Positions 12,969 through 56,100 of a stretch of DNA of 64,000 nt are shown here, one piece after another (within the stretch, counting starts at the first letter, position 1; every line of letters starts with the position of its first letter). The position numbers and the translations under genes are program-made. This DNA is from Sphagnum compactum (taxonomy: Eukaryota). Under the pieces are notes generated by a model. The model saw only the letters and a program-made list of their open reading frames with translations, searched no databases and was not told the origin of the DNA. Location of the stretch: the NCBI GenBank assembly GCA_965153455.1, contig OZ234494.1, forward strand, positions 8,928,001-8,992,000, written 5' to 3'.

Positions 12969-14893
12969 TGTTGAAGATTATGATGTAGATGTTAGAAACG
13001 TAGATACTGGTGTGGTAGATAGTAGAAACAATGTGGTAGATAAGTGTTGCAAGCAATCAAAGACATAGGTAGATTTGAGAGGGCTTGGTGACAGCTAGGG
13101 TTAGGGTTTGGCGGCGGCTAGGATGAGGGCTTGGTGACGGCTAGGGTTAGGGTTTGGTGGCCGCTAGGGTTAGGCAGCGGCTAGGTTAGGGTTAAGTGGC
13201 GGCTACTTTAGGGTTAGTAGATAGTATATAAGGGTTTGGTTTGAGGAGTTTGAGAGTGCATTGAGGCAATTGCATGTAAGAGTGCTCATTAAGTATTAAT
13301 TAGCATTTGGTTGAGCGCATAAGTGGGTAGAGAGGTCGGATTTGAGTGCAAAATGGCATCGTTTGAGGGAGAGAGCGCTAAAGTCATTGACAAATTCAAT
13401 GGGGAGAACTTCAACCTTTGGAAGTTCAAGATGGAGATGGTGTTGGCCTCCATGGACCTTTGGGAGATTCTCGACGGGTCTGAGGAGGCTCCACCATCCA
13501 ATGCGGACCCCAAAGTCATCGAGGAGTACCAACGGCGCGCGAAGAAGGCCGTGTCCACCATTGGCATCAACTTGGTGGATAGTCAACTTCACCACATCAA
13601 GAGGTGCAAGGGACCCGCTGAGGCATGGAAGACACTTTGCAACATCCATGAGACGCGGAGCTTGTCCAACATCCTCTTCATTCGTCGCAAGTTCTTCACG
13701 TGCAAGATGCAAGAGGGAGAGGACCTTCTAGACCACATCAACAAGGTCAAGGCGCTTGCGGATCAAATTGCTTGTTTGGAGGTGCCCGTGAGGGATGAGG
13801 ATGTTGTGATGACCTTGCTTGAGAGCTTGTCACCCTCCTACGAGTACCTAATCACCGCCTTGGAGGCCTTGCCCATGCAAGACCTCACCATGGAGTTTGT
13901 GACCGCACGATTGATGCATGAAGTGTCCAAGAGGAAGGAGAAGGAGCCGCAAGGTGACGATGGTGTCAACGCAAGGAAGAGGAGGGACCACATCTACACG
14001 CAAAGACACGAAGACATGCTACTATTGTGGCAAACCGGGCCACATTGCACGATTTTGCTTCAAGGCCAAAAACAACAACAAGGAGAAGGAGAATGCCAAC
14101 AAAGCTAAGGACGATGATGACTATTCCTTTGCAACAAAGGATGGAGACCATTGCAAGGCCATATGCACGTGGATCATGGACTCGGGAGCCACCAAGCATA
14201 TGACCTCTCATAGAACCGCATTCGACACGTATGAGGTAATTCCAACACGCAACGTGCATACGGGTGATGATAGCATTGTTGAGGCAATTGGAATGGGGTC
14301 CATCCTTGTGGAAGTGATGGTGAAAGGGCGAACCAAAAAGATTAGAATCAAGGACGTGCTCCATGTGCCAAAATTGCATGCCAACTTGCTTTCGGTGAGC
14401 AAAATCTTGTCAAGTGGGTGCAAAGTGCAATTCAACATGACTGAGTGCATTGTGAGGGCATTTGATGGAAAGGTGATTGCAATAGCGCTACGCGAAGGCA
14501 ACTTGTATCAAGTGACCTTCACTAAGGTGTGTGAGGTGCATGTGGCCAACGTGGCCCAAACTTCAACAATTGATGGTGCATTGGAGCTTTGGCATCGCCG
14601 CCTCGATCATTTGAACGTCAAAGGTGTGCATGCGCTCCAAAACATGGTGAGTGGTATGAACCTTGGAAACATGCCTTGCCCTACATCTTCATTTGTTTGT
14701 GAAGGGTGCATTGAGGGAAAACAACATCGCAAACCATTTCCAAGCGATGGAGGGATGCGTGCCACCAAGCCCTTGGAGATTGTGCATTCGGACGTATGTG
14801 GCCCCATGAGGACCACATCCTTGGGTGGTGCAAGGTACTTTGTGACGTACATTGACGACTTTTCAAGGAAGGTGTGGGTGTACTTGTTGAAGT
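12969..14893 (+). mobile_element. Copia family B, 5' part, inserted into a family A LTR
   Basis: LTR begins TGTTGAAGATTATG at 12969 and matches the LTR at 33262-32860; R-U5-PBS deleted near 13250; truncated in integrase. Confidence 0.9.
13353..14893 (+). pseudogene. Family B gag-protease-integrase N-terminus
   Basis: MASFEGESAKVIDKFNGENFNLWKF gag; CYYCGKPGHIARFC knuckle; WIMDSGATKHM protease; VHSDVCGP integrase; frameshift near 13960. Confidence 0.92.
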
Positions 14894-14967
14894 CCCTAAA
14901 CCCTTCCTAAAACCTGTACAAGAAACTTGAAAAACTTCTCTTACACCTCAAACTTCAATGTTGAAAC

Positions 14968-15520
14968 TGTTTTTTTTGCATTTGAAGTTCAAAAAGGTAT
15001 TGTAAATCACTAATTGACACACCCATAGCTTTTTAAATCACTCAAAATGAACTTACAATGAAAAAGATATGGGGTTTCAAACTATAGAGGTTTAAAGTTT
15101 TTTTTTTCAAAACATTTGAAACAAAATATCACAGTTTTGAAAATTGATATTACATTATTTTTTCATTGTAAGTTCGTTTTGAAGATCAAAGATTGTAGAT
15201 CACTAGTTGCCGCACCCATAGCTTTTTAGATCACTCAAAATGGACCTAAAATGAAAAAGATATGGGGTTCAAACTTATAGAGGTTTAAAGTTTTTTTTTT
15301 CAAAACATTTGAAACAAAATATCACAATTTTGGTATTTGAGATTACATTATTTCTTCATTTCTTTGTTGTTTTGAAGATCAAAGAGATATTGTAGATCGC
15401 TAGTTGCCGCACCCATAGCAATTAGATCACTCAAAATGGACCTAAAATGAAAAAGATATGGGGTTTCAAACTATAGAAGTTTTAAGTTTTTTTTTCAAAG
15501 CATTCGAGACAAAATATCAA
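14968..15520. repeat. Tandem repeat, about 195-bp unit, about 3 copies
   Basis: AAAAAGATATGGGG recurs near 15061, 15256 and 15451, together with CACCCATAGC...ATCACTCAAAATG and TTTTTTTCAAAACATTTGAAACAAAATATC. Confidence 0.9.
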
Positions 15521-16442
15521 CTACAGTACAACTATAATTTTTATCCCATATTGTTTGTCATAGATTTCAAGTTTGTAAATTACATAATGAAGTTAGTGCA
15601 CTAAGTGTTTTCAAAAGGCGAAGTTGGCACCTAGGACAAACTAATAAGAAAGGTTTGACTTTAAAAGCCACATGGTGAAAAAAATGATTATCTAAAACTT
15701 ACTTGTCTACCATAAGCCTAAGTAACACTATGATCTACCTATTTACCTAGGCCTACCTACCTAGGTTTAAGTTAGGGAAGCTATATAAAATAGGTAGGCC
15801 TAAACCTATCTATTTATTTCTAGGTGGACCTACATACCTAAACCTAAGCTTGCACATAATTTTAAGTAGGGACACGTGTCAAAAAACTATTGTTTAGATT
15901 CTTTGCCTAAACATAAATCTAAGTAAGGCCATGTGGCAATAAACTAGTGGTTAGACTCTTTGATTGGTTTAACTATAACATAGTTAAAATTACAATTTGA
16001 TGACCTAATTAGAATGTAGTTGAAATTTTAACTCATTCTTTGATGACATCATGGTTTATTAGTGGATGAAGTTCATCCAAGGGAGGTTACCCCATACGAC
16101 AATTCCTAAAGTTGGAAAATAGTTGAAAGTTCAATTTTGAAATCTAGATGAAGGTGGATGAACTTCATCTAGAAGTCAAAAATGTTCTGTCAACTAAAAT
16201 GGTCTATCGCTTTCAACTAAAATCTTGTCACTTCAATGTTGGTTGAAAAATTAACATGTGTAGGTAGGTTTCGATTGTGGTGTGGGTTGGATTCAACATT
16301 GTCAACTATTTTAATAGGTAGTTGAAAACGTCGTTTTGAGTTGAAACAAACATTTTACAGTTGGAAGTGAGGTTTTCAATTTCAAAATGTAGTTGAAACA
16401 TAATTGAAACCATAGTTGAAAACCTTGGTTTTTCTCCTAGTG
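15521..16442 (-). mobile_element. Terminus of a non-autonomous CACTA (En/Spm-like) element; left boundary uncertain
   Basis: Minus strand begins CACTAGGAGAAAAACC at 16442; many subterminal AGTTGAAA/TTTCAACT motifs at 16018-16420; it interrupts a transposase-like relic exactly at this point. The second TIR was not found. Confidence 0.6.
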
Positions 16443-24848: not shown

Positions 24849-25505
24849 GTGCGGGCCAATGAAGACTACATCGCATGGTGGAGCGCGATACTTTCTCACT
24901 TTCATTGACGATTTCTCAAGGAAAACCCATGTTTATCTTTTGAAGACCAAAGGAGAAGCGTTTTAAAAATTCAAACAATACAAGGCATTGGTGGAGAATG
25001 AAATTGGTCGCAAAATCAAAGTGCTACGATTAGACAATGGAGGAGAATTTGTGTTCATGAAGTTTGACGCATTTCTTGCGGAATGTGGAATTCAACGACA
25101 AACAAGTGCGCCTTATTCCCCAGAACAAAATGGTGATGCAGAACGTGCCAATAGAATCATCATGGAATGTGTGAGAAACATGATTCTTGCACAAGGGTTG
25201 GAACTTGAATTTGGGGTGAAGCGGTGAACACGGCGGTGTACATCAAAAATCGATGTCCCACCAAGGCTCTTGATTCCAAGACCCCTCAAGAAGCATGGAG
25301 TGGTAGGAAACCCGATGTGTCTCATTTGAGAGTCTTTGGTTATAAAGCCTTTGCACATGTCCCCGATGACAAGACGACCAAATTAGAGTCCAAGTCCATG
25401 CCTTGTGTGTTTTTAGGGTATTATGAAGGCACGAAAGCATATCGCTTGATGTGTGTAGAAACCAAGAGAATCATTAAAAGTAGAGATGTCGTGTTCATTG
25501 AAGTG
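24849..25505 (+). pseudogene. Family A1 integrase core fragment
   Basis: CGPMKTTSHGGARYF...LRLDNGGEF...SRDVVFIE with a stop and a frameshift; fused in inverted orientation to the preceding RNase H piece. Confidence 0.9.
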
Positions 25506-27625
25506 TCTTGATTCAAAGCTCTTGATTCAAAGACCCCACAAGAAGCGTGGACCGGTACAAAGCCGAATGTATCTCATTTGAGAGTTTTTGGTTGCAAAAC
25601 ATTTGCACACATTCCAAATGAAAAGAGAAGCAAATTAGAGTCCAAATCCATACCTTGTGTGTTTCTAGGGTATTGTGAAGAGACCAAAGCATATCGCTTA
25701 ATGTGTCTAGAAACCAAAAGGATCATTAAGAGCCGAGATGTTGTGTTCCTTGAAGGGACGGAAGAAGTAGAAGGTGTTCGTGATAAGAGACCCCTTTCAA
25801 ACCAAATAGAACACCTTATTGTGGATGAAGTCGATGAACTTGTGAAGGATGTTAATCCTATATCTTTGAAGGCAAGACCAGGGGAAGACGTGGAAGGTGA
25901 TGAATCTACAACAAACTCTTCTTCGGAAGAAGAATTTGCTTCATCACAAGACAAAGGTTTGAATGAACCATAACAAGATGGACCAAGAGAAAGGCCCCAA
26001 AGACAACGTAAGGAGTGGCCTCGTGATTGGTGGGTTGCCACCAAAGAGGTGGAACGAGCCACCATGGCATTTTCGGAAGAACCCCAAACCGTGGAAGAGG
26101 CGTTGAATTGCGAAGATGCAAAGAAGTGGGAGATTGCCATGCAAGAAGAATACGACTCTCTTCTTGTCAACAACACTTGGTCCTTGGTGCCACTCCCCAA
26201 GGGTAGAAAACCCATTTCTTGCAAATGGGTGTTCAAAATCAAACATGGGGTCGATGGTGAAGTCGAACGGTACAAGGCGAAACTTGTGGCAAGAGGATTC
26301 ACCCAAACATTTGGAGTCGATTACAATGAAACTTTTGCACCCGTTGCAAAGTTTGTGTCAATTCGTTGTATCCTTCCACTAGCGGCCATTGAAGACATGG
26401 AGATTCATCAAATGGACGTCAAAACTGCATTTCTCAATGGTGACCTTGAAGAGGAGATCTACATGGAGCAACCCGAAGGATTCACACATGAAGATGAACA
26501 TCTTGTGTGTAAGCTTCACAAGTCATTGTATGGCTTGAAATAATCTCCAAGGGCTTGGAACCAAAAGCTAGACGATTTCTTGAAAAGCATCGAGTTTACG
26601 AGAAGTGATGCGGACTTTAGTGTGTATGTTGCGCAAGTCGAGGATGTGAAATTTTTCATCGTCGTCTACGTCAATGATCTCATCTTGGTGTGCAATAATA
26701 AGGACAAGCTTTTGCAAGTGAAGGAAGAACTTTCTCGAAAGTTCGAAATGAAAGATCTTGGTGATTTGCATTTTTTCCTTGGCATGGAAGTGGAAAGGGA
26801 TCATGCACAACGTCTTCTTTACATCAACCAAATTGGGTATCTCAAGGAGATTCCCAAACGCTTTCGCATGGAGGATTGCAAAACCATCGCAATGCCACTT
26901 GATCCCAAGACGAAGTTGAAGAAGAATGTGAACAAGGATGATGAAATGGTGAAGGTTCCTTATCACAAGCTGTGGGATCCTTGATGTATGCCATGTTGTG
27001 TATTCGACCCGATTTGGCATACCCAATAAGCGTGGTGAGTCAACACATGGCCAATCCAAGCCTAGAACATTAGATTGCGATGAAACGCATTTTTCGATAC
27101 TTGTAATGCACATTGTAATTCAAATTACGCTTCGAAGGATTATCACCCCAAGATGTGGTCGGATATTGTGATGCAGATTGGGCCGGTGACCTTGAGGATA
27201 GGAGATCCACCACAGGGTTTGTATTCATGATGGGAGGTGGAGCCACTTCGTGGAGTAGCAAACGACAACCCACAATCGCTTTGTCAACGATGGAGGCCGA
27301 ATACATGGCAAGTACACAAGCTACCAAGGAAGCCATATGGATGACAAAGCTCATGAAAGAATTAGGGTACATGAAAGAGAAGAAGGCGATGGTGATTCGA
27401 TGTGACAACCAAGGTGCAATATCATTGACGAAGAATCCTACTCAACATGCTCGAACAAAGCACATCGATGTTCAGCATCACTTTGTTCGAAAACAAGTTG
27501 AAAATGGCGAAGTTACGTTCGAATATTGTTCAACGAAAGAGATGGTGGCGGATGTGCTTACCAAGGCATTACCGCAAGAACGACATTACAAATTGATAAG
27601 CATGTTCGGATTGGAAACTTCATAG
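25506..27625 (+). pseudogene. A2 integrase C-terminus, reverse transcriptase and RNase H
   Basis: [26 protein letters not shown] (normally YVDD), [21 protein letters not shown] motifs; TAA stops at 25971 and 26541 at positions where CAA is expected; ends FGLETS*. Confidence 0.95.
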
Positions 27626-29571: not shown

Positions 29572-30535
29572 AGGACATGTAAAATTAGAGATGCTAAAGA
29601 TTGAGAAGGGGGAGGGAAGAATTTTTTTTGTAGATGTAAAGGCTTAGCTCCCACATGCATAGAAGCTCTAGGCCATTGTTGAGGCAGAATATGGTCGAGT
29701 GGAGGCATCCCTTGACCAAACCCCCAAGCTGTTGTAAAAGGCACAAAGGGTTATAAACGAAGACAAGGCCTTGTATGCAATGTTGTCTGCGCAAGTCATG
29801 AATTGGAGGTGGTAATCATGTCAACGAAGATGTGTTTGGAAGCGACAACAAACCTCCACAATGCAGTGGAAAGCTGACTCCAAGAGGTTGCTAGCAAGGT
29901 GTTGATTGCTAACCTTAAACCTATTTAGCACACCGCCATACGTCACACAACAAAGCCACTGGCCCTGGTTGTCAGCCCTTGCACTATATGTTCCTATTGT
30001 TTTCAAGGGCTGGACATTGTAGTTGCCCCTTGTTAGTGCATGTACCACTTATGGTACGTGGGATTACACCTGCAAGTGTCCCACACTTCTGCCCGAAAGT
30101 CGTGTGGTGGAGCGTTCAACAAAGTAGGCCTGGTGCACGAGCATGGGGATGAAGAGGTGTGGTGATGATCAAGGTGATGCATAAGCCGAAGGTATTGTGT
30201 TAAGTTCTAGCCTGAAGTTGGTCCAAACCCATAGACATGCATGTACATCTATTATGGTTTTGGTTGCATTATGTGTGATAGTTGTTGGTGGTGCTTATAC
30301 AGCAGATGCAGAAAAAGCTAGCCCCATGGGCGTTTCTAGGCTCCACTTGGGCTCCTTACATTGCTAGTGGGAGCCAAGGTGCACAATTGCCAAGTGGTAG
30401 CCTTGTTTTTTGTCAGAGCTATAGGAGGAAGACAACTATTAGTTGGGTGTCTTTTGCAAGCAACAACAATGACAAAGCCTAAAATCTAGATAGAGATAAT
30501 GGGTTGAAGAGGATTAGACATTGTTAGGATAATTT

Positions 30536-31037
30536 TAATGGAAACAACTTGAAAATCAAGCAAGAAATGAAACACTCAAGGTTCATGAAATGAAACAATT
30601 ATATTAACTAATAATAATCAGAAAGGTTGTATGCTTCAAATGCTACAATCACAAAACTATGGCTTGCAACAACTAACAAAGCTTGAAGGTTCTATGTGCA
30701 CTCAAAACCATGAAAGGAGAGAATGAAAGACTCTTCAAAACCACTCCAATATATACTATCTTCTAACCCTAAAGTAACTGCAACTTAACCCTAACCTAGC
30801 CGCCGCCTAACCCTAGCCGCCACCAAACCCTAACCCTAGCCGCCACCAAACCCTAACCCTAGCTGCCACCAAACCCTAACCCTAGCCGTCGCCAAGCCCT
30901 AAGTAGCCTCCACTTCCAAACCCTAACTACCACTATTTAACATAACTTAACTATTATAAGGATGTGAATACTATTCATCCATTTGATGAATCACATTCAT
31001 CAACATTGGGAGTTGGAAACAAATAGTATTTCTAACA
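30536..31037 (-). repeat. 3' LTR of the outer element
   Basis: Family A LTR in reverse, adjacent to the PPT and the pol stop at 31046. Confidence 0.95.
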
Positions 31038-31045
31038 CTCCAACT

Positions 31046-32859
31046 CTATGACGTTTCTAATCCGAACATGGTTATCAACTTATGATGTCGTTTTTTGGAT
31101 AATGCCTTGGTAAGGACATTCGCCACCATTTGTTCCGTTGGACAATATTCAAATCGAACCTCTCTGTTTTCAACTCGTTCTCGAACAAAATGATGTTGTA
31201 CATCAATGTGTTTTGTTCGTGCATGGCGAGTGGGATTTTTGGTCAATGATATCGCACCTTGATTGTTGCATCGAATCACCATCACCTTCTTACCCCATGT
31301 ATCCTAAATCCATCATCAATTTTGTTATCCATATGGTTTCTTTTGTGGCTTGGGTGTTCGCCATATACTCTGCCTTCGTGGTGGACAATGCTATTGTAGG
31401 TTGTCGTTTGCTACTCCAAGAAATGGCTCCACCTCCGATCATGAAAACAAACCCTGTGGTGGACCTCCTATCTTCAAGATCACCACCCCAATCGACATCA
31501 CAATATCCAAGCACTTCCTTGGATGGTGTTGCACCGAATTGTAATTTCATTTACAACGTAACTTGCAAATATCGAAAGATTCGTTTCACGGCCATGCAAT
31601 GCTCCATGCTAGGGTTGGCCATGTGTTGACTCAACACACTTATTGGGTATGCCAAGTCAAGTCATGGCATACATCAAGGACCCAACCGCTTGTTGATATG
31701 AAAATCCCTTCGAATCATCATTTCCATTTGGATTCTTTTGTACTTCACTTTGGGATCGAATGGAACTCCAATGGGCTTACATTCCTCCATTCCAAAACGT
31801 TTCAATATTTCCTTAAGGTATTTGATTTGGTTGATGCCTAGGAATCGTTCATCACAATTCCTTTCCACCTCCATTCCCAAAAAGAAATGCAACTCTCCAA
31901 GGTCATTTATTTCAAACTTTTGACTCAACTCCTCTTTTATTTGCAAAAGTTTGGTTTGATCGTTGCAAACCAAGATGAGGTCATCCACATAGACCACAAT
32001 GAAAAACTTCACATCTCCTGCTTGTGTTACATACACACTAGGATCGGCCTCACTCTTCACAAATTCAATGCTTTTGAGAAACGCATCTAACTTTTGATTC
32101 CATGCCCTTGGAGATTGTTTCAAACCATACAAGGATTTGTGAAGCTTACATACAAGATGTTCACCTCCTTGGTGCACGAACCCTTGAGGTTGCTCCATGT
32201 AAATTTCCTCTTCAAGCTCGCCATTGAGAAATGCAGTTTTGACGTCCATTTGATGAATCTCCATGTCTTTCAAGGCTGCCAATGCAAGAATACAACGAAT
32301 AGATGTAAACTTTACGTCGGGTGCAAAGGTTTCGTTGTAACCCACTCCGTAGGTTTGGGTAAAACCCCTTGCCACTAATCTGGCCTTGTAGCGTTCCACC
32401 TCCCCATTCGCGCCTTGTTTGATTTTGAACACCCATTTGCAAGAAACGGGTTTCCTACCATCGGGAAGTGGCACCAAAGTCCAGGTGTTGTTTGCCATGA
32501 GGGAATTATATTCTTCTTGCATTGCGCACTCCCACTCCTTGGAATTTTCACATGTCAATGCTTTTTCAATATTTTGGGGCTCTTCCAAAAATGCAACGGT
32601 GGCACGTTCCACCTCCTTGGTAGCAATTCACCAATCCCGAGGCCATTCCCTTCGTTGCCTTTGAAGTCTTTCCTTTGACACATGTTGTGAAGGTTCATTC
32701 GAAACATCAAATTCTTCTTCTGATGAAGAACTTGGTGTGGATTCACTTTGCAGCCCTTCCATTATTGTTCCATTCAAAGGTGTATCACGACTAAAGGTCA
32801 ATGGTTCTTCTCCTTCAGCTTCTTTGTTCACAATTTCATGCACAACTACATTTTTTACT
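31046..32859 (-). pseudogene. Outer element integrase C-terminal linker, RT and RNase H
   Basis: ORFs 32628..32843, 31674..32612 (YVDD), 31290..31550 and 31046..31285 are collinear with the intact pol. Confidence 0.95.
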
Positions 32860-33262
32860 TATTGGAAATTACAAAGGTTATATGCTTCAAATGCTACAAT
32901 CATAAAACTATGGCTTGTAATATCTAACAAGGCTTGAAGCTTCTATGTGCACTCAAAAACCATAAAAGAGAGAATGAAAGACTCCTCAAAACCAAACCCT
33001 TATATACTATCTACTAACCCTAAAGTAGCCGCCACTTAACCCTAACCTAGCCGCCGCTTAACCCTAGCCGCCACCAAACCCTAACCCTAGTCGTCACCAA
33101 GCCCTAATCCTAGCCGCCGCCAAACCGTAACCCTAGCTGTCACCAAGCCCTCTCAAATCTACCTATGTCTTTGATTGCTTGCAACACTTATCTACCACAT
33201 TGTTTCTACTATCTACCACACCATTATCTACGTTTCTAACATCTACATCATAATCTTCAACA
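32860..33262 (-). repeat. Family B 3' LTR (chimeric with family A LTR)
   Basis: Minus strand TGTTGAAGATTATG...TTCCAATA; first approx. 120 bp unique, the rest homologous to family A LTRs. Confidence 0.92.
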
Positions 33263-34372
33263 CTCCCACTTTGCAAGTAATCTAAGACTCCCAATCCCAT
33301 GCTTCTTGTAAGGTTTTGATGCCACTCCTTTGCCAATGCCTTTGTCAACACATCCGCCACCATATCTTGAGTTGGGCAATACTTGAGGCCTATTTCTCCA
33401 CTCTCCAACTTCTCTCGAATGAAGTGGTGTTGTATGTCAATGTGCTTTGTGCGAGAGTGGTGGGTAGGGTTCTTTGCAGGTGCAATGCATCCTTGATTGT
33501 CACACATGATGCTTGTTGCTCCATCTTGCACAAGTCCCACATCCACCATCAATTTCCTCAACCATATGGCCTCCTTGATGCATTGACTAGTGGCCATGTA
33601 TTTGCCCTCCGTGGTAGACAAGGCAATAAATTGTAGGTTGTCTCTTGCAATTTCATGAGACGGCTCCCACTCCAATAAAGAACACATACCCCGTGGTGGA
33701 ACGCCGCTCATTTGCATCTCCACCCCAATCGGCATCACAATATCCCCTCAAACTAATATCCTTGCCTCCAAGGCACAATTTCAAGTCCAAAGTGCCCTTC
33801 AAGTACCGCATGATGCGTTTCACCGCCATCCAATGGGAAGGACCAGCTCTTGACATGAGTTGACTCACCATGCTCACCGGGAATGCAAGATCCGGCCGTG
33901 TGCCCACCATGGCATACATCAATGATCCCACCATCGCCTTGTATGGAATGCCTTGCATCTCCTGTTGAATGCCTTGAAACTCCTCCTCCGTGAGCTTCAA
34001 GAGCTTGGAATTCACATCAAGCGGAGTTCCGATGAGCTTGTAATTCACATCAAGCGGAGTTCCGATGGGCTTGCACTCCTCCATGTTGAAGCGCTCGAGC
34101 ACCTCCTCAATGTACTTACTTTGGCTCATGGTTATGGTGCGGTTCGCACGGTCTTTCTCAAACTCCACGCCAAGGCAATAGTGCAACTCTCCAAGATCAC
34201 TCATCTCAAATTCATCTTCAAGCCTTGACTTCAACCATTTCAAAATGCTCACATTGCTTGCTAAGATGATCAAATCACATAGATGATCACTATCAACAAG
34301 TACTCACCCGTTTGCTTGACGTACAAAGAATGGTCCACTTGGCTCCTAGAAAAGCCTTCGTGGGTGAAGAAC
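33163..34372 (-). pseudogene. Family B RT C-terminus and RNase H
   Basis: FEMSDLGELHYCLG, GYCDADWGGD and RTKHIDIQHHF motifs; YVDD destroyed by a small deletion near 34278; 33-bp in-frame duplication at 34001-34066. Confidence 0.93.
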
Positions 34373-34861
34373 TGTTAGAAATACTATTCGTTTCTAATTC
34401 CCAATGTTGATGAATGTGTTAAACATTCATCAAAAGGATGAATAGTATAGACATCCTTGTAGTTGTTAGGTTAGGGTTTAGAAGTGAAGAGTACTTAGGG
34501 TTTGGCGGCGGCTAGGGTTAGGGTTAGGCGGCGGCTAGGTTTAGGGTTTGGTGGCGGCTAGGGTTAGGCGGCGGCTAGGGTTAGGGTTTGGTGGCGGCTA
34601 GGTTAGGGTTAAGTGGCGGCTACTTAGGGTTAGGAGATATTATATAATGGAGTGGTTTTGAGTTGTCTTTCATTCCTTCCTTTCATGGTTGTTGAGTGCA
34701 CATAGAACCTTCAAGCTTTGTTAGTTGTTGCAAGCCATAGTTTTATGATTGTAGCATTTGAAGCATACAACCTTTGTAATCTTCTTTTAGTTAATACAAT
34801 TGTTCCATTTCATGAACCTTGAGTGTTGCATTTCTTACTTGTATTCAAGTTGTTTCCAATA
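34373..34861 (+). repeat. 5' LTR of the intact element
   Basis: TGTTAGAAAT...TTTCCAATA. Confidence 0.99.
34495..34647 (+). promoter_or_regulatory. LTR promoter: TTAGGG/telo-box and GCC-box array followed by TATA box
   Basis: Repeated GGCGGCTAGGGTTAGGGTTT units, then TATATAA at 34641-34647. Confidence 0.7.
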
Positions 34862-34875
34862 GGTTATGGGCCCAC
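34862..34875 (+). promoter_or_regulatory. Primer-binding site (half tRNA-iMet type)
   Basis: GGTTATGGGCCCAC directly after the LTR. Confidence 0.9.
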
Positions 34876-35531
34876 ACCAAGCAAGAGAAAGGACATTGTG
34901 TTAGAACAAGAAGTAGTGAAAGGTTTGAGCTTGTATTGCATAGGAAAAAGGAGAGAATCCTTTTGAGACAAGGTTCTTAGTTTGCAAAGGGAGAGAGAGT
35001 TCATTTCCAAGTGGTGGCATACAAGGAGCTTGCAACTTTTCCAAGTGAGTGGGAGGTGTGGAAGAGACTTCTTCAAAGTGTTGTAAGTTCTTAAGTGTGG
35101 AAGAGTGTTCTTCAAGTCTTTAAGTTTCAAGTTTGAAGTTCAAAAGTGTGAAAGAGAGTTCTTCAAGTTTTTGAGGTTTCCAACATTGAAGTTTGAGGTG
35201 TAAGAGAAGTTTTTCAAGTTTCTTGTAAGGTTTTTAGGAAACTTGTTTCGTTTAAGTTTTTTGAAAGTGTTTGCTTGTACAACATTGAAAGGGAGAATCC
35301 TTTTGAGGGAAGGCTTTTAGTTTGCAAGGTTGCAAAGAGAATAGTCTTACAAGTGAGTGAGAGGTGTGGAAGAGATTTCTTCAAGGTGTTATAAGTTTTT
35401 CAAGTGTGAAAAACTTGTTTTTGAAAGTATCAAGGTTTTCCAAGTGAAAGTGTTTGGAAGATAGTTCTTTTAGTTGTTGAAAACTTCAACTTTCAAGTTT
35501 GAGAGTGTTTGTTGTAGCATTTGTGTTCAAA

Positions 35532-38500
35532 ATGTCTTCTTTTCAAATGGAGTCCTTGAAAGTCATGGAGAAGTTTGATGGTGGCAACTTTCACCTTTGG
35601 AAGTTCAAAATGCGCATGATGCTTTCCAAACATGGGCTTTGGAAATTTGTTGATGGGAGTGCCACCTTGCCAAGTGAAGAAGTTGCAAGGGCCGATTACA
35701 ACGAAAAAGAGACCAAGGCTTTTGCATTGCTTTGCGAACATCTCACGGATGCCCAACTTGCACACATTCAATATTGTGACAATGTGAGAAGTGCGTGGGA
35801 GGCTCTTTGTGGTGTGCATGAAGCTAAGACCATTGGCAACAAGTTGTTCCTTCGAAGGAGATTCTTCACCATCAAAATGCAAGAAGGAGATGACATGCTT
35901 GTGCACATCAACACGGTGAAAGCCCTTGCGGACCAACTACGTTCCATCGAGGTGAACATTACGGATGAAGATGTTTACATGGTACTCCTCATGAGCCTTC
36001 CTCCATCCTTTGATAACTTAGTCACAAGCTTGGAGTCCATGTCCACGAAAGATGTAGACCTTCAATTCGTTGTAGCAAGGTTGCTTCACGAAGTGTCCAA
36101 AAGAAAAGAATGTGAGAATTCCGAGACTACCGCATTAGTGAACAAAACTCACAAGCCAAATGAGAAGCTTTGCTTTTATTGTAAGAAACCCGGACATTTT
36201 GTGAGAAATTGTTTGAAGAAGAAAAATGATGAAAAAGAAAAAGTTAATCAAGCTTGTGAAGATCACGAACAAATGTTTATTGCGGCATTGAGTGCCAATG
36301 ATCATACCACGAATGATTGGATTGTCGATTCGGGTGCAACGCAACACATGACATTCGAACAAGAATGGTTTACCACGTACGAGCGCATTTCCCCAAGGAG
36401 GGTGTTCATGGGCGATGACACCGTTTTGGAGGCCATTGGCAAGGGGAGCATCAAAGCCACATTGCAAGTGGGAGGCCAATTGACACACACAACCATCACC
36501 CAAGTTCTTCATGTTCCAAAAATGAAGAATAATCTCATTTCGGTGAGCAAACTCATTTCGGAAGGTTTCAAAGTGGAGTTTGACAAGGATGGTTGTAAGG
36601 TCAACGACGCTCGAGGAGTTGTTGTGGCGCAAGCACGAAGGGACAAGAACTTGTACCTTCTTAATGTGAAGGTGCGTAAGGACATGGCACACATTGCAAA
36701 TTCTTTGGAGGAAAGTGCGATGCTTTGGCATGAAAGACTTGGCCATCTCAACATGGCAAGCCTTAAGGAATTAGATGCCATGGTGGATGGCATGAATTTG
36801 AAAGAAGTGCCGTTGCATCACATTTGTGAAGGATGCGTCAAAGGCAAACATCAAAGAACATCATTTCCCAAGGACGGAGCAACGAGGGCTTCACAACTTT
36901 TGGAGATTGTGCACACCGATGTGTGCGGGCCAATGAAGACTACATCCCATGGTGGAGCGCGATACTTTCTCACTTTCATTGACGATTTCTCAAGGAAAAC
37001 TCATGTCTATCTTTTGAAGGCCAAAGGAGAAGCGTTTGAAAAGTTCAAACAATACAAGGCCTTGGTGGAGAACGAAATTGGTCACAAAATCAAAGTGCTG
37101 CGTTCCGACAACGGAGGAGAATTTGTGTCTAAAAAATTTGACGCATTTCTTGCGGAATGTGGAATTCAACGACAAACAAGTGCGCCCTATTCCCCACAAC
37201 AAAACGGTGTTGCGGAACGTGCCAATAGAACCATCATGGAATGTGCAAGAAGCATGATTCTTGCACAAGGGTTGGAACTTCAATTTTGGGGCGAAGCGGT
37301 GAACACGGCGGTGTACATCAAAAATCGATGTCCAACCAAGGCTCTTGATTCCAAGACCCCTCAAGAAGCGTGGAGTGGTAGGAAACCCGATGTGTCCCAT
37401 TTGAGAGTTTTTGGTTGTAAGGCCTTTGCACATGTCCCCGATGAGAAGAGGACCAAATTAGAGTCCAAGTCCATGCCTTGTGTGTTTTTAGGATATTACG
37501 AAGGCACCAAAGCGTATCGCTTGATGTGTGTGAAAACCAAGAGAATCATCAAAAGTAGAGATGTTGTGTTCATTGAAAGGTCAAAGGAAATAGGTGGTGT
37601 ACCTCATCTTGAGAAAGAAGAAAATGTAGTTGTGCATGAAGAAGTTGAGCGAGAAGAACCATTGGCCTTTAGTCAAGATAGACCTTTGAGTGAAACAAGA
37701 ATGGAAGGTGTGCAAAGTGAATCCACACCAAGTTCTTCATCTGAAGAGGAATTTGTTGTTTCCAATGACAACCCATCTTGTGAACCTTCACAAGATATTG
37801 CGAGGGAAAGACCTCAAAGGCAACGAAGGGAATGGCCTCGGGATTGGTGGATTGCTACCAAAGAGGTGGAGCGCGCCACCGTTGCATTTTTGGAGGAGCC
37901 CCAAAATATTGAAGAAGCATTGACATGTGAAAATTCCAAGGAGTGGGAGTGTGCGATGCGAGAAGAATATGATTCCCTCATGACAAACAACACATGGACT
38001 TTGGTACCACTTCCCGCCGGTAGGAAACCCGTTTCTTGCAAATGGGTGTTCAAAATCAAACAAGGCGCAAATGGGGAAGTGGAACGCTACAAGGCTAGAT
38101 TAGTAGCAAGAGGTTTTACTCAAACCTACGGAGTGGATTACAACGAAACTTTTGCGCCGGTCGCAAAATTTGCATCTATTCGTTGTATTCTTGCATTGGC
38201 GGCCTTGGAAGACATGGAGATCCATCAAATGGACGTGAAAACCGCATTTCTCAATGGCGAGCTTGAAGAGGAGATTTACATGGAGCAACCTCAAGGGTTC
38301 GTGCACCAAGGAGGTGAACATCTCGTGTGTAAGCTTCAGAAGTCCTTGTATGGTTTGAAACAATCTCCGAGGGCATGGAATCAAAAGTTAGATGCGTTTC
38401 TCAAAAGCATTGAATTTATCAAGAGTGAGGCGGATCCTAGTGTGTACGTTGCACAAGTGGGAGATGTGAAGTTTTTCATTGTGGTCTATGTGGACGACCT

Positions 38501-39446
38501 CATTTTGGTGTGCAACGATCAAAACAAACTTTTACAAATCAAAGAGGAATTGAGTCAAAAGTTTGAAATGAAGGACCTCGGGGAGTTGCATTTCTTTTTG
38601 GGGATGGAGGTGGAAAGGAATCGTGATGAAAGACTCCTACGCATCAACCAAATCAAATACCTCAAGGAAATATTGAAGCGGTTTCGAATGGAAGAATGTA
38701 AGCCCATTGGAGTTCCATTGGATCCCAAGGTGAAGTTACAAAGGAATGCGAATGGAAATGATGAATCAAAGGGATTCCCATATCAACAAGCGGTTGGGTC
38801 TTTGATGTATGCCATGTTGTGCACACGACCCGACTTGGCATACCCAATAAGCGTGTTGAGTCAACACATGGCGAACCCTAACATGGAGCATTGGATGGCC
38901 GTCAAACGAATCTTTCGATATTTGCAAGGTACATTGCAAATGAAATTACAATTCGGTGGAACACCATCCAAGGAAGTTCTTGGATATTGTGATGCGGATT
39001 GGGGTGGTGATCTTGAAGATAGGAGGTCCACCACAGGGTTTGTTTTCATGATTGGAGGTGGAGCGATTTCTTGGAGTAGCAAACGACAACCCACAATAGC
39101 ATTGTCCACCACGGAGGCGGAATACATGGCGAACACGCAAGCCACAAAAGAAGCCGTATGGATAACAAAATTGATGATGGATTTGGGATACATGGAGGAG
39201 AAGAAAATGATGGTGATTCGATGCGACAATCAAGGTGCGATATCATTGACCAAGAATCCCACTCACCATGCACGAACAAAACACATTGATGTACAACATC
39301 ATTTTGTTCGAGAACGAGTTGAAAATGGAGAAGTTGGATTTGAATATTGTCCAACGGAACACATGGTGGCGGATGTCCTTACTAAGGCATTATCTAAAGA
39401 ACGACATCATAAGTTGATAAACATGTTCGGATTAGAAACTTCATAG
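35532..39446 (+). CDS. Copia gag-pol polyprotein, 1304 aa (gag, zinc knuckle, PR, INT, RT, RNase H)
   Basis: Uninterrupted ORF from ATG 35532 with CX2CX4HX4C, DSGA, LWHERLGH..C..C, integrase D-D-E, YVDD at 38487 and GYCDADW; INT before RT is copia order. Confidence 0.98.
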   Translation: MSSFQMESLKVMEKFDGGNFHLWKFKMRMMLSKHGLWKFVDGSATLPSEEVARADYNEKETKAFALLCEHLTDAQLAHIQYCDNVRSAWEALCGVHEAKTIGNKLFLRRRFFTIKMQEGDDMLVHINTVKALADQLRSIEVNITDEDVYMVLLMSLPPSFDNLVTSLESMSTKDVDLQFVVARLLHEVSKRKECENSETTALVNKTHKPNEKLCFYCKKPGHFVRNCLKKKNDEKEKVNQACEDHEQMFIAALSANDHTTNDWIVDSGATQHMTFEQEWFTTYERISPRRVFMGDDTVLEAIGKGSIKATLQVGGQLTHTTITQVLHVPKMKNNLISVSKLISEGFKVEFDKDGCKVNDARGVVVAQARRDKNLYLLNVKVRKDMAHIANSLEESAMLWHERLGHLNMASLKELDAMVDGMNLKEVPLHHICEGCVKGKHQRTSFPKDGATRASQLLEIVHTDVCGPMKTTSHGGARYFLTFIDDFSRKTHVYLLKAKGEAFEKFKQYKALVENEIGHKIKVLRSDNGGEFVSKKFDAFLAECGIQRQTSAPYSPQQNGVAERANRTIMECARSMILAQGLELQFWGEAVNTAVYIKNRCPTKALDSKTPQEAWSGRKPDVSHLRVFGCKAFAHVPDEKRTKLESKSMPCVFLGYYEGTKAYRLMCVKTKRIIKSRDVVFIERSKEIGGVPHLEKEENVVVHEEVEREEPLAFSQDRPLSETRMEGVQSESTPSSSSEEEFVVSNDNPSCEPSQDIARERPQRQRREWPRDWWIATKEVERATVAFLEEPQNIEEALTCENSKEWECAMREEYDSLMTNNTWTLVPLPAGRKPVSCKWVFKIKQGANGEVERYKARLVARGFTQTYGVDYNETFAPVAKFASIRCILALAALEDMEIHQMDVKTAFLNGELEEEIYMEQPQGFVHQGGEHLVCKLQKSLYGLKQSPRAWNQKLDAFLKSIEFIKSEADPSVYVAQVGDVKFFIVVYVDDLILVCNDQNKLLQIKEELSQKFEMKDLGELHFFLGMEVERNRDERLLRINQIKYLKEILKRFRMEECKPIGVPLDPKVKLQRNANGNDESKGFPYQQAVGSLMYAMLCTRPDLAYPISVLSQHMANPNMEHWMAVKRIFRYLQGTLQMKLQFGGTPSKEVLGYCDADWGGDLEDRRSTTGFVFMIGGGAISWSSKRQPTIALSTTEAEYMANTQATKEAVWITKLMMDLGYMEEKKMMVIRCDNQGAISLTKNPTHHARTKHIDVQHHFVRERVENGEVGFEYCPTEHMVADVLTKALSKERHHKLINMFGLETS

Positions 39447-39454
39447 AGTGGGAG
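39445..39454 (+). promoter_or_regulatory. Polypurine tract AGAGTGGGAG
   Basis: Overlaps the pol stop codon and abuts the 3' LTR. Confidence 0.88.
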
Positions 39455-39943
39455 TGTTAGAAATACTATTCGTTTCTAATTCCCAATGTTGATGAATGTG
39501 TTAAACATTCATCAAAAGGATGAATAGTATAGACATCCTTGTAGTTGTTAGGTTAGGGTTTAGAAGTGAAGAGTACTTAGGGTTTGGCGGCGGCTAGGGT
39601 TAGGGTTAGGCGGCGGCTAGGTTTAGGGTTTGGTGGCGGCTAGGGTTAGGCGGCGGCTAGGGTTAGGGTTTGGTGGCGGCTAGGTTAGGGTTAAGTGGCG
39701 GCTACTTAGGGTTAGGAGATATTATATAATGGAGTGGTTTTGAGTTGTCTTTCATTCCTTCCTTTCATGGTTGTTGAGTGCACATAGAACCTTCAAGCTT
39801 TGTTAGTTGTTGCAAGCCATAGTTTTATGATTGTAGCATTTGAAGCATACAACCTTTGTAATCTTCTTTTAGTTAATACAATTGTTCCATTTCATGAACC
39901 TTGAGTGTTGCATTTCTTACTTGTATTCAAGTTGTTTCCAATA
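39455..39943 (+). repeat. 3' LTR of the intact element
   Basis: Same sequence as 34373-34861 on visual comparison. Confidence 0.99.
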
Positions 39944-39948
39944 AGAAC

Positions 39949-41043
39949 ATGTCAATGCGTTGGTACCATGCTCTCGGTGATTGTTTGAGCCCGTACAACG
40001 ACTTCTTCAACTTACACACGAGGTGTTGCTTGCCATCTTGCACGAATCCTTGCGGTTGGTCCATGTAGATGTCCTCCTCCAATTCCCCATTCAAGAATGC
40101 AGTCTTCACGTCCATTTGGTGGATCTCCAAGTCCATGGCGGCTCCAATTGCAAGCATGCATCTAATGGTGGTGAACTTGGCCACCGGGGCAAATGTCTCA
40201 TTGAAGTCCACACCCTCAACTTGAGAGTACCCCTTGGCCACCAACCTTGCCTTGTGCCTCACGATGTGGCCCGATGCATCCCTTTTTGTGCGAAACACCC
40301 ACTTGCATCCCACACTCTTGCGATCCTTTGGAAGAGGCACCAACTCCCACGTGCCATTGGCCATGAGTGAGCCATACTCCTCTTGCATGGCCGCCTCCCA
40401 CTTGCTTGCATCCTCCGAACGCAGTGCATCACACAAATTCAATGGATCATCAAGACAAGCAACATTAGCACGTTCCACATCTTGTTGGGGTAGGATGTGG
40501 TTCTTCCACCATTCTCCAAGCGGTCGCCGCTCCCTCAAGGGGTACTTACTCTCCTCCGAGGGCTGCCCCTCTTGTTCACCACTTGTGCTTGCATCTTTAG
40601 ATGGTGTTGAAGGTGTTGATGAACACCGTGGGGTTGGCGGTGCCTCTTGATTGCTTAGATCTTCTTTGGCATCACTTACGCCCTCATCATCATCCACACA
40701 TGGCGATTTGGAAGATGTGTCCACAATCACCACATTAGGGGTCTCATTTCTCCCACTTGGACGCATCTTCAAATCATTGCTGACACTAGTGCTATCCTCC
40801 ATGAACTCAACATCCCTACACTTGATGATCTTTTTGGATTGCACACACATAAGCCTATATGCCTTGGTGCCTTCACAATACCCAAGAAACAAGCATTTTG
40901 TGCCCTTTGCATCAAGCTTACTCCTCTTCTCGTCCGGCACCATGGCATACGCAATGCATCCAAACACACGCATGTGTGAAATGCAAGGCTTTCTCCCACT
41001 CCACGCTTCCTCGAGTGTGATGGACGGCAACGCCCTTGATGGA
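39949..41043 (-). pseudogene. Family B integrase C-terminus and RT N-terminus
   Basis: ORF 39927..41030: EAWSGRKP, RHKARLVAKGY, LYGLKQSPRAWYQRIDMF; continues in frame at 34372 once the intact element and one TSD copy are removed. Confidence 0.95.
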
Positions 41044-53118: not shown

Positions 53119-56100
53119 AAAGTTTAAGTTTATTGTGTTTGGCATGAAATTGTTTAGGAAATTCAAATTTTAACATACATTTTCTTTTTCAAAAGTTATT
53201 CAAATGCTACAATTGAAAATATGATTTTAAAACTTATTCAATAATGTATTTTTTAACACTTTATTATAATTGATAAATATTAAATTTAAAAGGTTTAAAA
53301 TAACTTAAAATAACATGTCATGAATAAATTTACAATTTGTTTTTGTTTAAATTGACCTACAATCCTTGTGAATTCAATGTGAATTAAATCATGCATTCAT
53401 TAAATCTTTAACAATGTCATTTCCATTATGTAAAATGTGTCCAATTTTTGAAGAATTGCAAGTTTTTATTTTCCCCAATATGATTCACTAAAGTTTTTTA
53501 TTTATTTCTATGATATTACTAAAATCACAATCATCCATAAGAAGATTTAGCCACATTTGGTTATAGACAAGTTATGGAGTTGGAAACTTGTTTAAATCCT
53601 TCAATATTATGGCTACCTACTATAATTTATTGTAAAAAATTGATGATATATAATTTTTTAAATTTAACACATTTTGATTTTTTTCTTTCAAATTTATCTT
53701 TTGTTGATGTTTTTGCCGCTTTAAATTGGCAAAAATTAGCCCAATTTTTTTTTAAACTAAGCAATCAATATAGCCATTTAATCTCAATATCATATTTGTT
53801 TAGCAACATGAATCGTACACTAAATACAAATGATTAATTACACAACTTTGAAAAAAACCACAATTTGTTTTTTAAATGATGTAAGAATATATTTTACCTT
53901 CGTTTCCTTTGTAAAAATAGAAATAACATATCTAATGAAATTTTAGCATTAAAGAGTTGGATTAAACCCCCCTTCCCCCACCAACCAACATGTTTTTATG
54001 GTTTCAAATTTTCCTAATTTGGCAATTCTTGTTCGGAAAAAAATGGAAATAATTACGAAAATTCAAGAAAAAATGTAAACAACAAAAAGTTTGCCAAAAG
54101 TTTGAGATCACAAATTTGAAGAAAAAACTCCTAATGAATAAAATATATATATATTAATAATTTCAACCTTAAACACATAAACATCAATTTTATTTGAATT
54201 TGTTTAAGTTCAATTTTTAAAATGACGATAAAATTTATCGATTTTTTTAAAACATTAAAATTAATATTAGTGATGTAACTAATGTTTACTTTGATAATGA
54301 ATTTCCATCATTTTGCAAACATAAAAAGGGGCCATCAACATCAACAAAACATTTTTAATTAAAAACAACAAAATTTTTAATTTTAAACTTTTTTTAATGG
54401 TATAATTCTATAATCGATTTTAGGATTTATAACCAAAATATAAAAATATTTTAACAAATTTATAACTCCATATACATGGTCTATAGCCAAAACATGGTTA
54501 AATCTTGTTGTTGATGATTTTGAAGAACACCAAAAAATTGAACAAATAAAAAGATAAAAATATTCATTCATGTAATTATATGATCACCATTTATAAATCA
54601 TTCATTTATTTGATTTTTAAAATAAAAATTCAGAACTCACCTTTAAATATTTCGACATAAACTTGTAACAAAATAAGCCTTAAAATTGATAAATCACGTT
54701 TAAAATAAAAATAAGAAGTAAAAAATATTAATAATTTTTAAATTTTTAAATAACTTAATTTTAATTATAATAAAATAATTTAAAAATAATTTAAAGAAAA
54801 TTTTAATTTAAAGAATTAAAAAATAATCATTTTTTTCAACATTGATTATTTTTTCATACACCAAGAGAAAAAAATGGAAAAAATTAAAGATTATTTCTAA
54901 GGGTTTTTGTGTGGCATCATGAACATGTATAATAAAAAACTTGTTCATGATGCCTAAAACAAACTAAGGAAAAACATACATTTTAATTTACATAAATGTA
55001 TAAGAGCTTAATATATGAAAAAATCGTATTTAGAAGTCTACATGCATCTTAGACTTTGCATGTATGAACATTTGACCTAATCATTAACCCATTCAAATAT
55101 AAATGTGAAATCTGCTTAATTTTTTATACATTTATTTTAAAAAATTATGGTGAATGCAAAATGCAACTTATAAATAATGGATTTAACATATTCAAAATGA
55201 ATGATGTACTCATGTGCAAATGTTGACAATTCAAAAGATGTGAAAATTTCACTAACCCATTCAAGTATAATGTGAGACATTAAGTTATTATGTGTGTTTC
55301 AATGTATACTAGTAAATGCACTATGCAACATTTGAATAATGGTTTCAATAAGTTCAAAGTGGATGATTCAATTCATGTAAATATGTTGATAGTTTTTAAA
55401 AATCTGAAAAAACTCACCAAACCATTGCATGCATTTTAATATATTCTAATAAATGCAAGATGCAACTTGTGAATATTGGTTTTTAACATATTAAAAATGC
55501 GGTTTAACTCATGTACACATGTTGATAATTCAAAAGATGTGAAAAAAATCAATAATTCGTTCCAATATAAATGTGGGGTTTTAAATTATTATTACATGTG
55601 TTTTAATAAATTATGGATAAATGTAAAATGCAATCCATGACTAATGGTTTCAACATGTTAAAAGTTGATGGTTCAACTCATGTACCATGTTGATAGTTGA
55701 AAAGATGTCAAAACCCATTATAATGCATTGTGTAAATAAAACTAAAGGCTACCTCAATTTTCACATTAACAATTTGAAATTAAAATAAAATAAAGTAGGG
55801 TTCAAATTATATTCATAAATGAAAAACATAGTGAACATAATAACTAGAACAACATTGACCATTAATTAGTGCAACAAGCCACTTGCAAACTTAAAATGGC
55901 TAAATGTAGTCGAAATATAGTCAAATCGGATAGTAGTCACAATTTGTGGGGGTGGAAAAAAGGACAAGATTTTTTCTTGTCATGCTTCTCAAAATTATGT
56001 GACACCCCAACAAAAACGGAATCATTTTTGAAAATGAACTTTTAAATACAAAACCAAAACCAATAGTGGTTTATGCATGTTGACAAAGGTTTTGATGTCA

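Follow-up and report, generated by a model that had tools for sequence, protein, structure and literature searches.

A copia LTR body apparently captured from a distant copia family in a Sphagnum genome

In the window analysed here (the whole 64,000-nucleotide stretch of Sphagnum compactum DNA, positions 8928001-8992000 of its contig, in a genome of 382 Mb), a copia retrotransposon family that we call B carries an LTR whose body appears to have been taken from a distant copia family, A. We put the probability that B captured the body, and that it passed from A to B, at about 0.93. The A/B case is real and resolved unusually well for an LTR capture between two distant copia families that are both autonomous, and similar captures have already been published. 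Both parents are available, the breakpoints are mapped to the base, the ancestor has left a relic in the same genome, and in some hosts the ancestor alone was seen.

Two distant families with one LTR body

A nest of copia elements occupies 1-15 kb and 24-47 kb of the window. Within it, a full-length family-A element (34373..39943, forward strand) sits in the RT of a family-B copy, B1, with a 5-bp target duplication; its LTRs (34373-34861 and 39455-39943, 489 nt each) are 100% identical, its primer site begins at 34862 and its 1304-aa ORF (35532-39446) is unbroken. B1 lies on the reverse strand to either side of this insertion, with its 3' LTR at 32860..33262, its polypurine tract (PPT), RNase H and the 3' part of RT, in broken frames, at 33263..34372, and its integrase end, INT-RT linker and the 5' part of RT at 39944..41043; it is truncated at ~41043, where it abuts inverted A sequence. 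The A-type element adjoining the 3' LTR (30535..32859, reverse strand, 88.5% identical to the A element) is the host sequence into which B1 inserted. A second copy, B2 (forward strand), lies inside an A LTR and consists of a 5' LTR with head, array and TATA box, cut by an internal deletion (12969..13249), followed by the remainder of the leader, gag (start 13353), protease and the start of integrase, frameshifted and truncated (13250..14903). The RT-RH region of B1 contains an in-frame 33-bp duplication (34001-34073). Elsewhere in the window, the integrase end of a copy of subfamily A2 carries a 252-bp tandem duplication (25262-25755), and an AT-rich region (53119-58666, 25% GC) consists of decayed repeats, with ~165-bp units and a 3.1-kb duplication whose copies are 73% identical.

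Both families encode proteins in the copia order gag-PR-INT-RT-RH (1304 aa in A, 1361 aa in B), with a copia-type gag and RVT_2 recognized by Pfam and RNase H by alignment, and both have paired LTRs, which end in TG...TA in most copies, a PPT, a primer site and a 5-bp target duplication. The primer site of A and B is a 14-nt match to positions 26-39 of tRNA-Met, as encoded by the genome's own tRNA-Met genes, and a pattern search returned tRNA-Met in 6/6 matches. This site (34862-34875), which is also common to the ancestral form B0 described below, includes an 8-nt palindrome that we speculate might be an RNA-pairing signal aiding co-packaging.

The chimeric 3' LTR of B1 (32860..33262, reverse strand) is 403 nt long, has TG...TA ends and is preceded by the PPT. 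It opens with a U3 head private to B (33151..33262, 112 nt), which is 91-97% identical to the B0 heads of metagenome loci. At Junction 1 (33150..33151), ~12 nt past the pol stop, the head gives way with a 1-nt overlap to an A-derived array of 22-23-nt units with TTAGGG and GGCGGC motifs (33015..33150, delimited with TRF and by alignment). The first array bases after the junction are of a type found mostly in subfamilies A2 and A1b, not in the youngest, A1. The A-derived TATA box (33009-32999) and presumed R follow (32868..33010, with the R/U5 limits deduced from the position of the TATA box); 12 columns of this segment are diagnostic for B. The LTR closes on an A-type terminal attachment end (32860..32867), joined after the loss of 73 nt of A's U5; the segment absent from chimeric B corresponds to 34781..34853 on the forward strand of the A element. 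From 33150 onward the B1 LTR is 85-90% identical to A LTRs over ~283 nt (E 1e-88 to 4e-107), with 85.7% for the A LTR at 34373. Its terminal bases are identical to those of A, and deriving them from the B0 end would require ~3 changes. Junction 2 coincides with the primer site, where short-U5 ends meet the B leader without extra bases in 18/18 cases, and 38/40 B-headed LTRs have the short U5. A shortened U5 arose independently in one A LTR (L098, C9:1008985), where it is joined to the A primer site and leader, in parallel to the loss in B.

The original prediction, that a private head is followed by an array and TATA body homologous to A, is thus borne out. Its claim that the homology runs to the LTR end holds for the array, the TATA box, the downstream segment and A's terminal bases, but not for the missing 73 nt of U5. 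It also presented B2 as a second copy of the same chimera, and the head, array and TATA box do match those of B1 at 97% over 282 nt; but it has lost R and U5, along with the primer site and the greater part of the leader, to an internal deletion of ~630 nt, so that the 3' part cannot be demonstrated from B2.

The pol frame of B passes through the PPT and continues for ~32 codons into the U3 head, with the stop at 33165-33163. In A, pol stops two codons ahead of the PPT, whereas the B frame has glutamine at that position and continues into the LTR (39444-39480 versus 33290-33163); pol of an unrelated family, C, also reads through its PPT. We considered that the head was retained because it encodes a needed Pol tail, and in-frame length is preserved in 44/48 heads. 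This idea was rejected, leaving a weak hint at most, because internal repeats underlie the common -21 and -30 deletions, a +2 variant has spread to two elements, a -4 variant found in many B0 copies shortens the tail, and family C reads through as well.

The coding regions tell a different story from the LTR. A and B proteins are 52.6% identical, with distinct gag starts and an INT-RT linker that aligns as poorly as first described (23-30% aa identity), and the leaders have only 16 nt in common, at the primer site. Across INT+RT+RH, the difference at 174 fourfold sites is 0.60, against a ceiling of 0.75, and dS is mostly not computable. In the TATA-R body (~150 nt, array left out; 86/129 LTR bodies assigned to a coding class), B differs from the three main A subfamilies by 0.130-0.138 per site, compared with 0.048 within B and 0.036-0.076 within and between the main A subfamilies. 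A body that had simply aged along with pol should match its synonymous divergence, and the two distances are 0.13-0.14 and 0.60. The LTR and the coding regions point to conflicting relationships. On the body tree 30/31 B-linked LTR bodies form one clade (support 100/97), which suggests a single origin of the chimeric body. This clade is sister to all sampled A bodies and is not nested in any living subfamily, and no living donor subfamily of A was found among them. An A-headed donor with B's TATA variant was also sought and rejected, given 64 B-type TATA sites against 65 head/array junctions and few unpaired sites.

The chimera has clearly been mobile, as had been claimed from B2: across 20 contigs of the genome, the one head/array junction was found 65 times (control, 0), and target duplications flank some copies. 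The 15 two-LTR B copies comprise six with an exact 5-bp duplication, two with one mismatch and seven in which none is recognisable, two of these seven being one duplicated element. Eight of the ten LTR pairs scored are 96-99.5% identical; the others are the duplicated recombinant discussed below, counted twice at 92%. Among 150 RT matches scored of 1281 candidates, 21 were of B type (93-100% aa), followed by a gap to the 110 of A (61-71%), and 19 belonged to family C. At one site (L119:4088-4567; C18:5.395 Mb), a B LTR has landed in reverse orientation within the head of a different B 3' LTR.

The ancestral LTR form and the direction of capture

Direction can be addressed through B elements with a different LTR. 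When metagenome contigs were scanned with the RNase H end of B, 34/34 B heads in the best 80 of 319 confirmed stretches ran on into an unrelated body, B0, which starts at the exact base where the chimera turns into the array (in some cases two samples supplied one and the same site, and the collection may omit genomes close to this one, such that chimera-free rows there are no proof of absence). Neither the A nor the B LTR gives a meaningful match to the B0 body, which does match LTRs in 2/3 more distant B relatives tested (dS ~1.2; E 2e-6 and 2e-5). In the same contigs, A RNase H is linked to an A head and an A body. B and B0 leaders are 83-93% identical, and dS between chimeric and B0 pol is 0.12-0.19 in 14/15 rows, with 0.08 in one short row. 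The timing fits, as the chimera-B0 dS is close to the distance between the B and A bodies.

B0 has also left a relic in this genome. There are 21 matches to the B0 body, 20 on the small contig C20 and one on C18; the B head is present at all 15 C20 matches examined and at the C18 site, and all are one rearranged element. Nine copies with common flanks at ~97-99.7% identity indicate that the relic multiplied, at least nine times, along with its surroundings on C20. Its order is LTR-leader-gag-integrase followed by an inverted, truncated LTR with the head and 48 nt of body (L236:2017-5387, L220-L235), an arrangement like that of a self-integration product. No B relative with another LTR appeared among the 150 RT matches scored of 1281 candidates; the relic escaped that search because it has no RT and was found only through its LTR. 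B copies with an ancestral LTR unlike that of A, which had been proposed as something to look for, therefore exist both in metagenome contigs and here. Because B0 heads continue in an unrelated body and distant B relatives have B0 motifs, B0 is the ancestral form of B, and the body came from A. No third family with the A/B body turned up among 20 out-of-cluster primer sites, of which five belong to A and 15 to other families that are ~25-55% identical to A per protein segment and have no A/B LTR match.

Several further B0-type sequences deserve mention. In one pair of loci (L144/L145), B0 RNase H and LTR are followed by the primer site and B leader, as in tandem elements with one common LTR. 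In another (L147/L148), a B0-type LTR is rearranged past the head with inverted pieces of its own end, and its RNase H groups with the chimeras. On the RNase H tree (430 columns, with rough bootstrap values and long branches from a few deleted rows), the chimeras fall into two groups inside the B0 radiation, one of which includes a rearranged B0-type row; this may reflect ongoing exchange of pol with B0, or 430 columns may lack resolution. In the window itself, 25 nt at 15536-15560, directly after a 193-bp tandem repeat (14981-15519), resemble the best-conserved motif of the B0 LTR (92%, E 7e-5); they may be a fossil or chance.

Routes to the chimera and continuing exchange

We consider it likely that the chimera was made by one non-homologous template switch followed by a normal second strand transfer. 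B was once an autonomous copia family with its own LTR, B0, which had the same head and an unrelated body, and in one ancestor it took the array, TATA box, R and U5 from A; the sequences show this capture, its direction, both breakpoints and the later spread. In the proposed mechanism, RNAs of A and B0 would have shared a particle and the common half-tRNA-Met primer. Minus-strand DNA primed on the A RNA would have taken in U5 and R of A, been transferred to the 3' end of A and been extended through A's TATA box and array. A single switch to the B0 RNA, lacking homology and lying 112 nt downstream of its PPT, would have come next, after which B0's head, pol, gag and leader were copied. The ordinary second strand transfer at the common primer site would then have created the second breakpoint with no extra event. 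The 73-nt U5 deletion, which is present across the whole family, presumably occurred at capture or soon after. Under the textbook model of reverse transcription, this very layout results if minus-strand synthesis is primed on A and then switches once to B0. Template switching between co-packaged RNAs, as originally predicted, therefore fits both breakpoints, although it is known by inference only. Template switches normally require some homology, and Junction 1, with its 1-nt overlap, offers almost none. Distant cross-packaging is also called rare in the accessible part of one survey (PMC6894440). Further points against this route are the lack of a living donor among the sampled A bodies, the split of the chimeras on the RNase H tree, the DNA-level LTR exchanges seen in these clusters and the seven two-LTR copies with no recognisable target duplication.

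Alternatively, the same capture may have happened at the DNA level, a possibility that we regard as unlikely but worth weighing. An A LTR could have landed in or beside the B0 LTRs of a nested cluster and been trimmed by deletions or ectopic recombination before the chimera transposed. B and B0 do lie among nested A copies, the 1-nt overlap suits end-joining, two present-day B elements described below bear signs of DNA-level events (a post-insertion crossover on C10 and a conversion on C11), and a DNA route is offered for the maize CR5/CR6 recombinants in the parts of that study available to us (PMC4079200). It would nevertheless need separate events at both ends, because an altered 3' LTR alone would have no matching R for the first jump. 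The second breakpoint lies exactly at the border of LTR and primer site and is free of scars at all 18 junctions, and the exchanges seen at the DNA level today use a homology that only the chimera has.

Whichever route produced it, the common body would now allow homologous recombination between B and A LTRs, and some elements appear to have undergone it. Three B elements are mosaic at the 12 diagnostic columns. On C14, one of them carries an A-type patch in each LTR and must therefore have inherited it through transposition. One on C11 (L044) has the patch in its 3' LTR only, with the target duplication intact, which suggests that it arose by conversion. The third, on C10 (L033/L034), is the duplicated recombinant: its 5' LTR is of B type, its 3' LTR turns A-type past the array and has a long U5, and a target duplication is lacking, which suggests a post-insertion crossover. 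This recombinant and its flanks are present twice, inverted, ~40 kb apart (3.658-3.707 Mb), and the double occurrence may be a segmental inverted duplication or an assembly artefact.

The A subfamilies show a related pattern. A1 and A2 (including L120 and L128-L136) stand at a dS of 1.17, yet their LTR heads, bodies and U5 tails are ~88-95% alike; their bodies are 0.074 apart and mixed on the body tree. This likeness could reflect exchange and homogenisation, or selection. One doubtful but intriguing extension is that the array-TATA-R-U5 module behaves as a replicator of its own in centromere-like clusters, crossing gag-pol lineages and giving its carriers an edge. It would have spread by homologous exchange among A subfamilies (dS ~1.2) and by one non-homologous capture into B, and, if real, it would account for the displacement of B0 by chimeric B here. 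Speculating from general knowledge, the TTAGGG-bearing array might recruit host telomere-repeat-binding proteins.

Autonomy, location and comparison with known systems

A very improbable reading is that B is a non-autonomous passenger of A, of the SARE/SNRE or Cereba/Quinta type, that took A's ends so that A's proteins move it into clusters. The primer site and ends are indeed common to A and B, gag-pol is unbroken in none of a set of 13 B copies, and for 59/65 junction sites a sampled A RT is found no farther than 100 kb away (expected at random, 1.5; family C matches, 4/19). On the other hand, the breaks lie at differing positions in each copy, one B copy has an uninterrupted 1361-aa ORF with all domains, and dN (~0.022) is well below dS (0.06-0.08) in 11/11 comparisons with this copy. 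From the open frame and the low dN, B is autonomous, or was until recently, and the unbroken copy refutes an obligate passenger relation; occasional movement of B in trans is possible. B0, moreover, was already inserted into A sequence. Still less credible is the idea that there was no swap and that purifying selection has held the LTR body since the A-B split: the close bodies (0.074) of A subfamilies at dS 1.17 do indicate that the A LTR is constrained, homogenised or both, but for B this reading is refuted by the B0 form, in which an entirely different body accompanies the B pol, head and leader, both in other hosts and in the relic here, with motifs of that body in more distant B relatives.

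The two families are also neighbors. The genome has 215 primer-site matches, and the 100 matches listed lie mostly in clusters on C1-C9; 104/110 A RT matches have another within 100 kb. The suggestion that the swap brought about this co-localisation was not borne out: B0 copies in other hosts already lie inside A sequence, and flank counts did not differ significantly (9/26 vs 12/22, p=0.24; raw counts in which three rows' flanks are B internal sequence or a tandem copy and one site is counted twice, from short-read contigs that under-represent clusters). We accordingly rejected a role of the swap in moving B into clusters; the common location probably preceded the capture and enabled it. Several dispersed copia families (L081-L096) have the same half-tRNA primer site with unrelated LTRs and lie outside the clusters, and they are natural controls for targeting. 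B transcription gave one read in 1.8 Gb of one polyA run (~12% of run X24), no sign of expression in that library, and this result does not bear on the suggested co-regulation of A and B. Contigs from three DNA runs with other organism labels cover B's TATA-R; the contig from run X10, at the depth of B's leader, starts 11 nt into the short-U5 end, over which it is free of mismatches. These contigs are only a hint that the chimera is shared among hosts, with the X10 overlap falling under our 31-letter bridging rule.

The arrangement has experimental value. B and B0 have nearly the same proteins with different promoters and ends, while A and B have a common promoter and ends with different proteins. 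In this natural two-by-two comparison, effects of the LTR on expression, and on targeting to the centromere-like clusters of mosses, can be told apart from those of the integrase.

LTR swapping has reportedly been described in soybean by Du et al. in 2010, in elements named SARE and SNRE. Recombination between very distant LTR-retrotransposon families is rare, with a handful of phylogenetic cases according to the accessible part of PMC6894440. As far as the available portions of the published accounts go, the closest precedent is maize CR5-Zm, which took part of its LTR from CR6, proliferated and left relics of its ancestral LTRs (Sharma and Presting 2014, PMC4079200). The recombinants of CR6 with maize CR5-Zm and sorghum CR5-Sb, which belong to a centromere family, resemble B in that part of an LTR came from another subfamily, the recombinant spread, and ancestral LTR remnants match another species. 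As in that case, B has an LTR in conflict with its coding region, identifiable parents on both sides and spread as a unit, although the exact A donor subfamily was not found. CR5 and CR6 are Ty3/gypsy elements of grasses and the swapped piece lies at the LTR beginning, whereas A and B are copia elements in which the promoter-R-U5 side was swapped, with unrelated LTR bodies and saturated synonymous sites. Yeast Ty1 and Ty2 (Carr et al. 2012, PMC3511429), as described in the accessible text, are likewise copia elements with diverged ORFs, nearly shared and hybrid LTRs and mapped breakpoints; their LTRs are nearly identical and the exchange homologous, however, and the first A-B0 junction is non-homologous. 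In einkorn, the available part of PMC11302176 gives RLG_Cereba and RLG_Quinta the same primer site and LTR ends and, as in A and B, a 3' LTR half in common from about the TATA box with a private 5' half. They are an autonomous/non-autonomous pair of common descent, whereas B is an autonomous family with an earlier LTR of its own; a partner of that type has no functional pol in any copy, and B has one unbroken ORF.

Within mosses, Bryco/RLC5 elements (PMC6317226, 10.1101/2023.05.19.541548, PMC9946827, PMC7466625), as the accessible parts describe them, match A and B in copia order, half-tRNA-Met primer site, 5-bp duplications and dense clustering at one or a few sites on each chromosome. In REXdb, as consulted in part, the half-tRNA-Met primer site marks Bryco and also Osser and part of Gymco-II; A and B are candidate members of Bryco. 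A search of openly accessible article texts brought up no published report of this A/B pair, and the supplements of moss genome papers may describe RLC5 subfamilies. In the available parts of the moss papers RLC5 is treated as one family with full-length and truncated forms, whereas A and B are two distant families joined by a captured LTR, and annotation by LTR similarity would merge these two families although they are half-diverged in protein.
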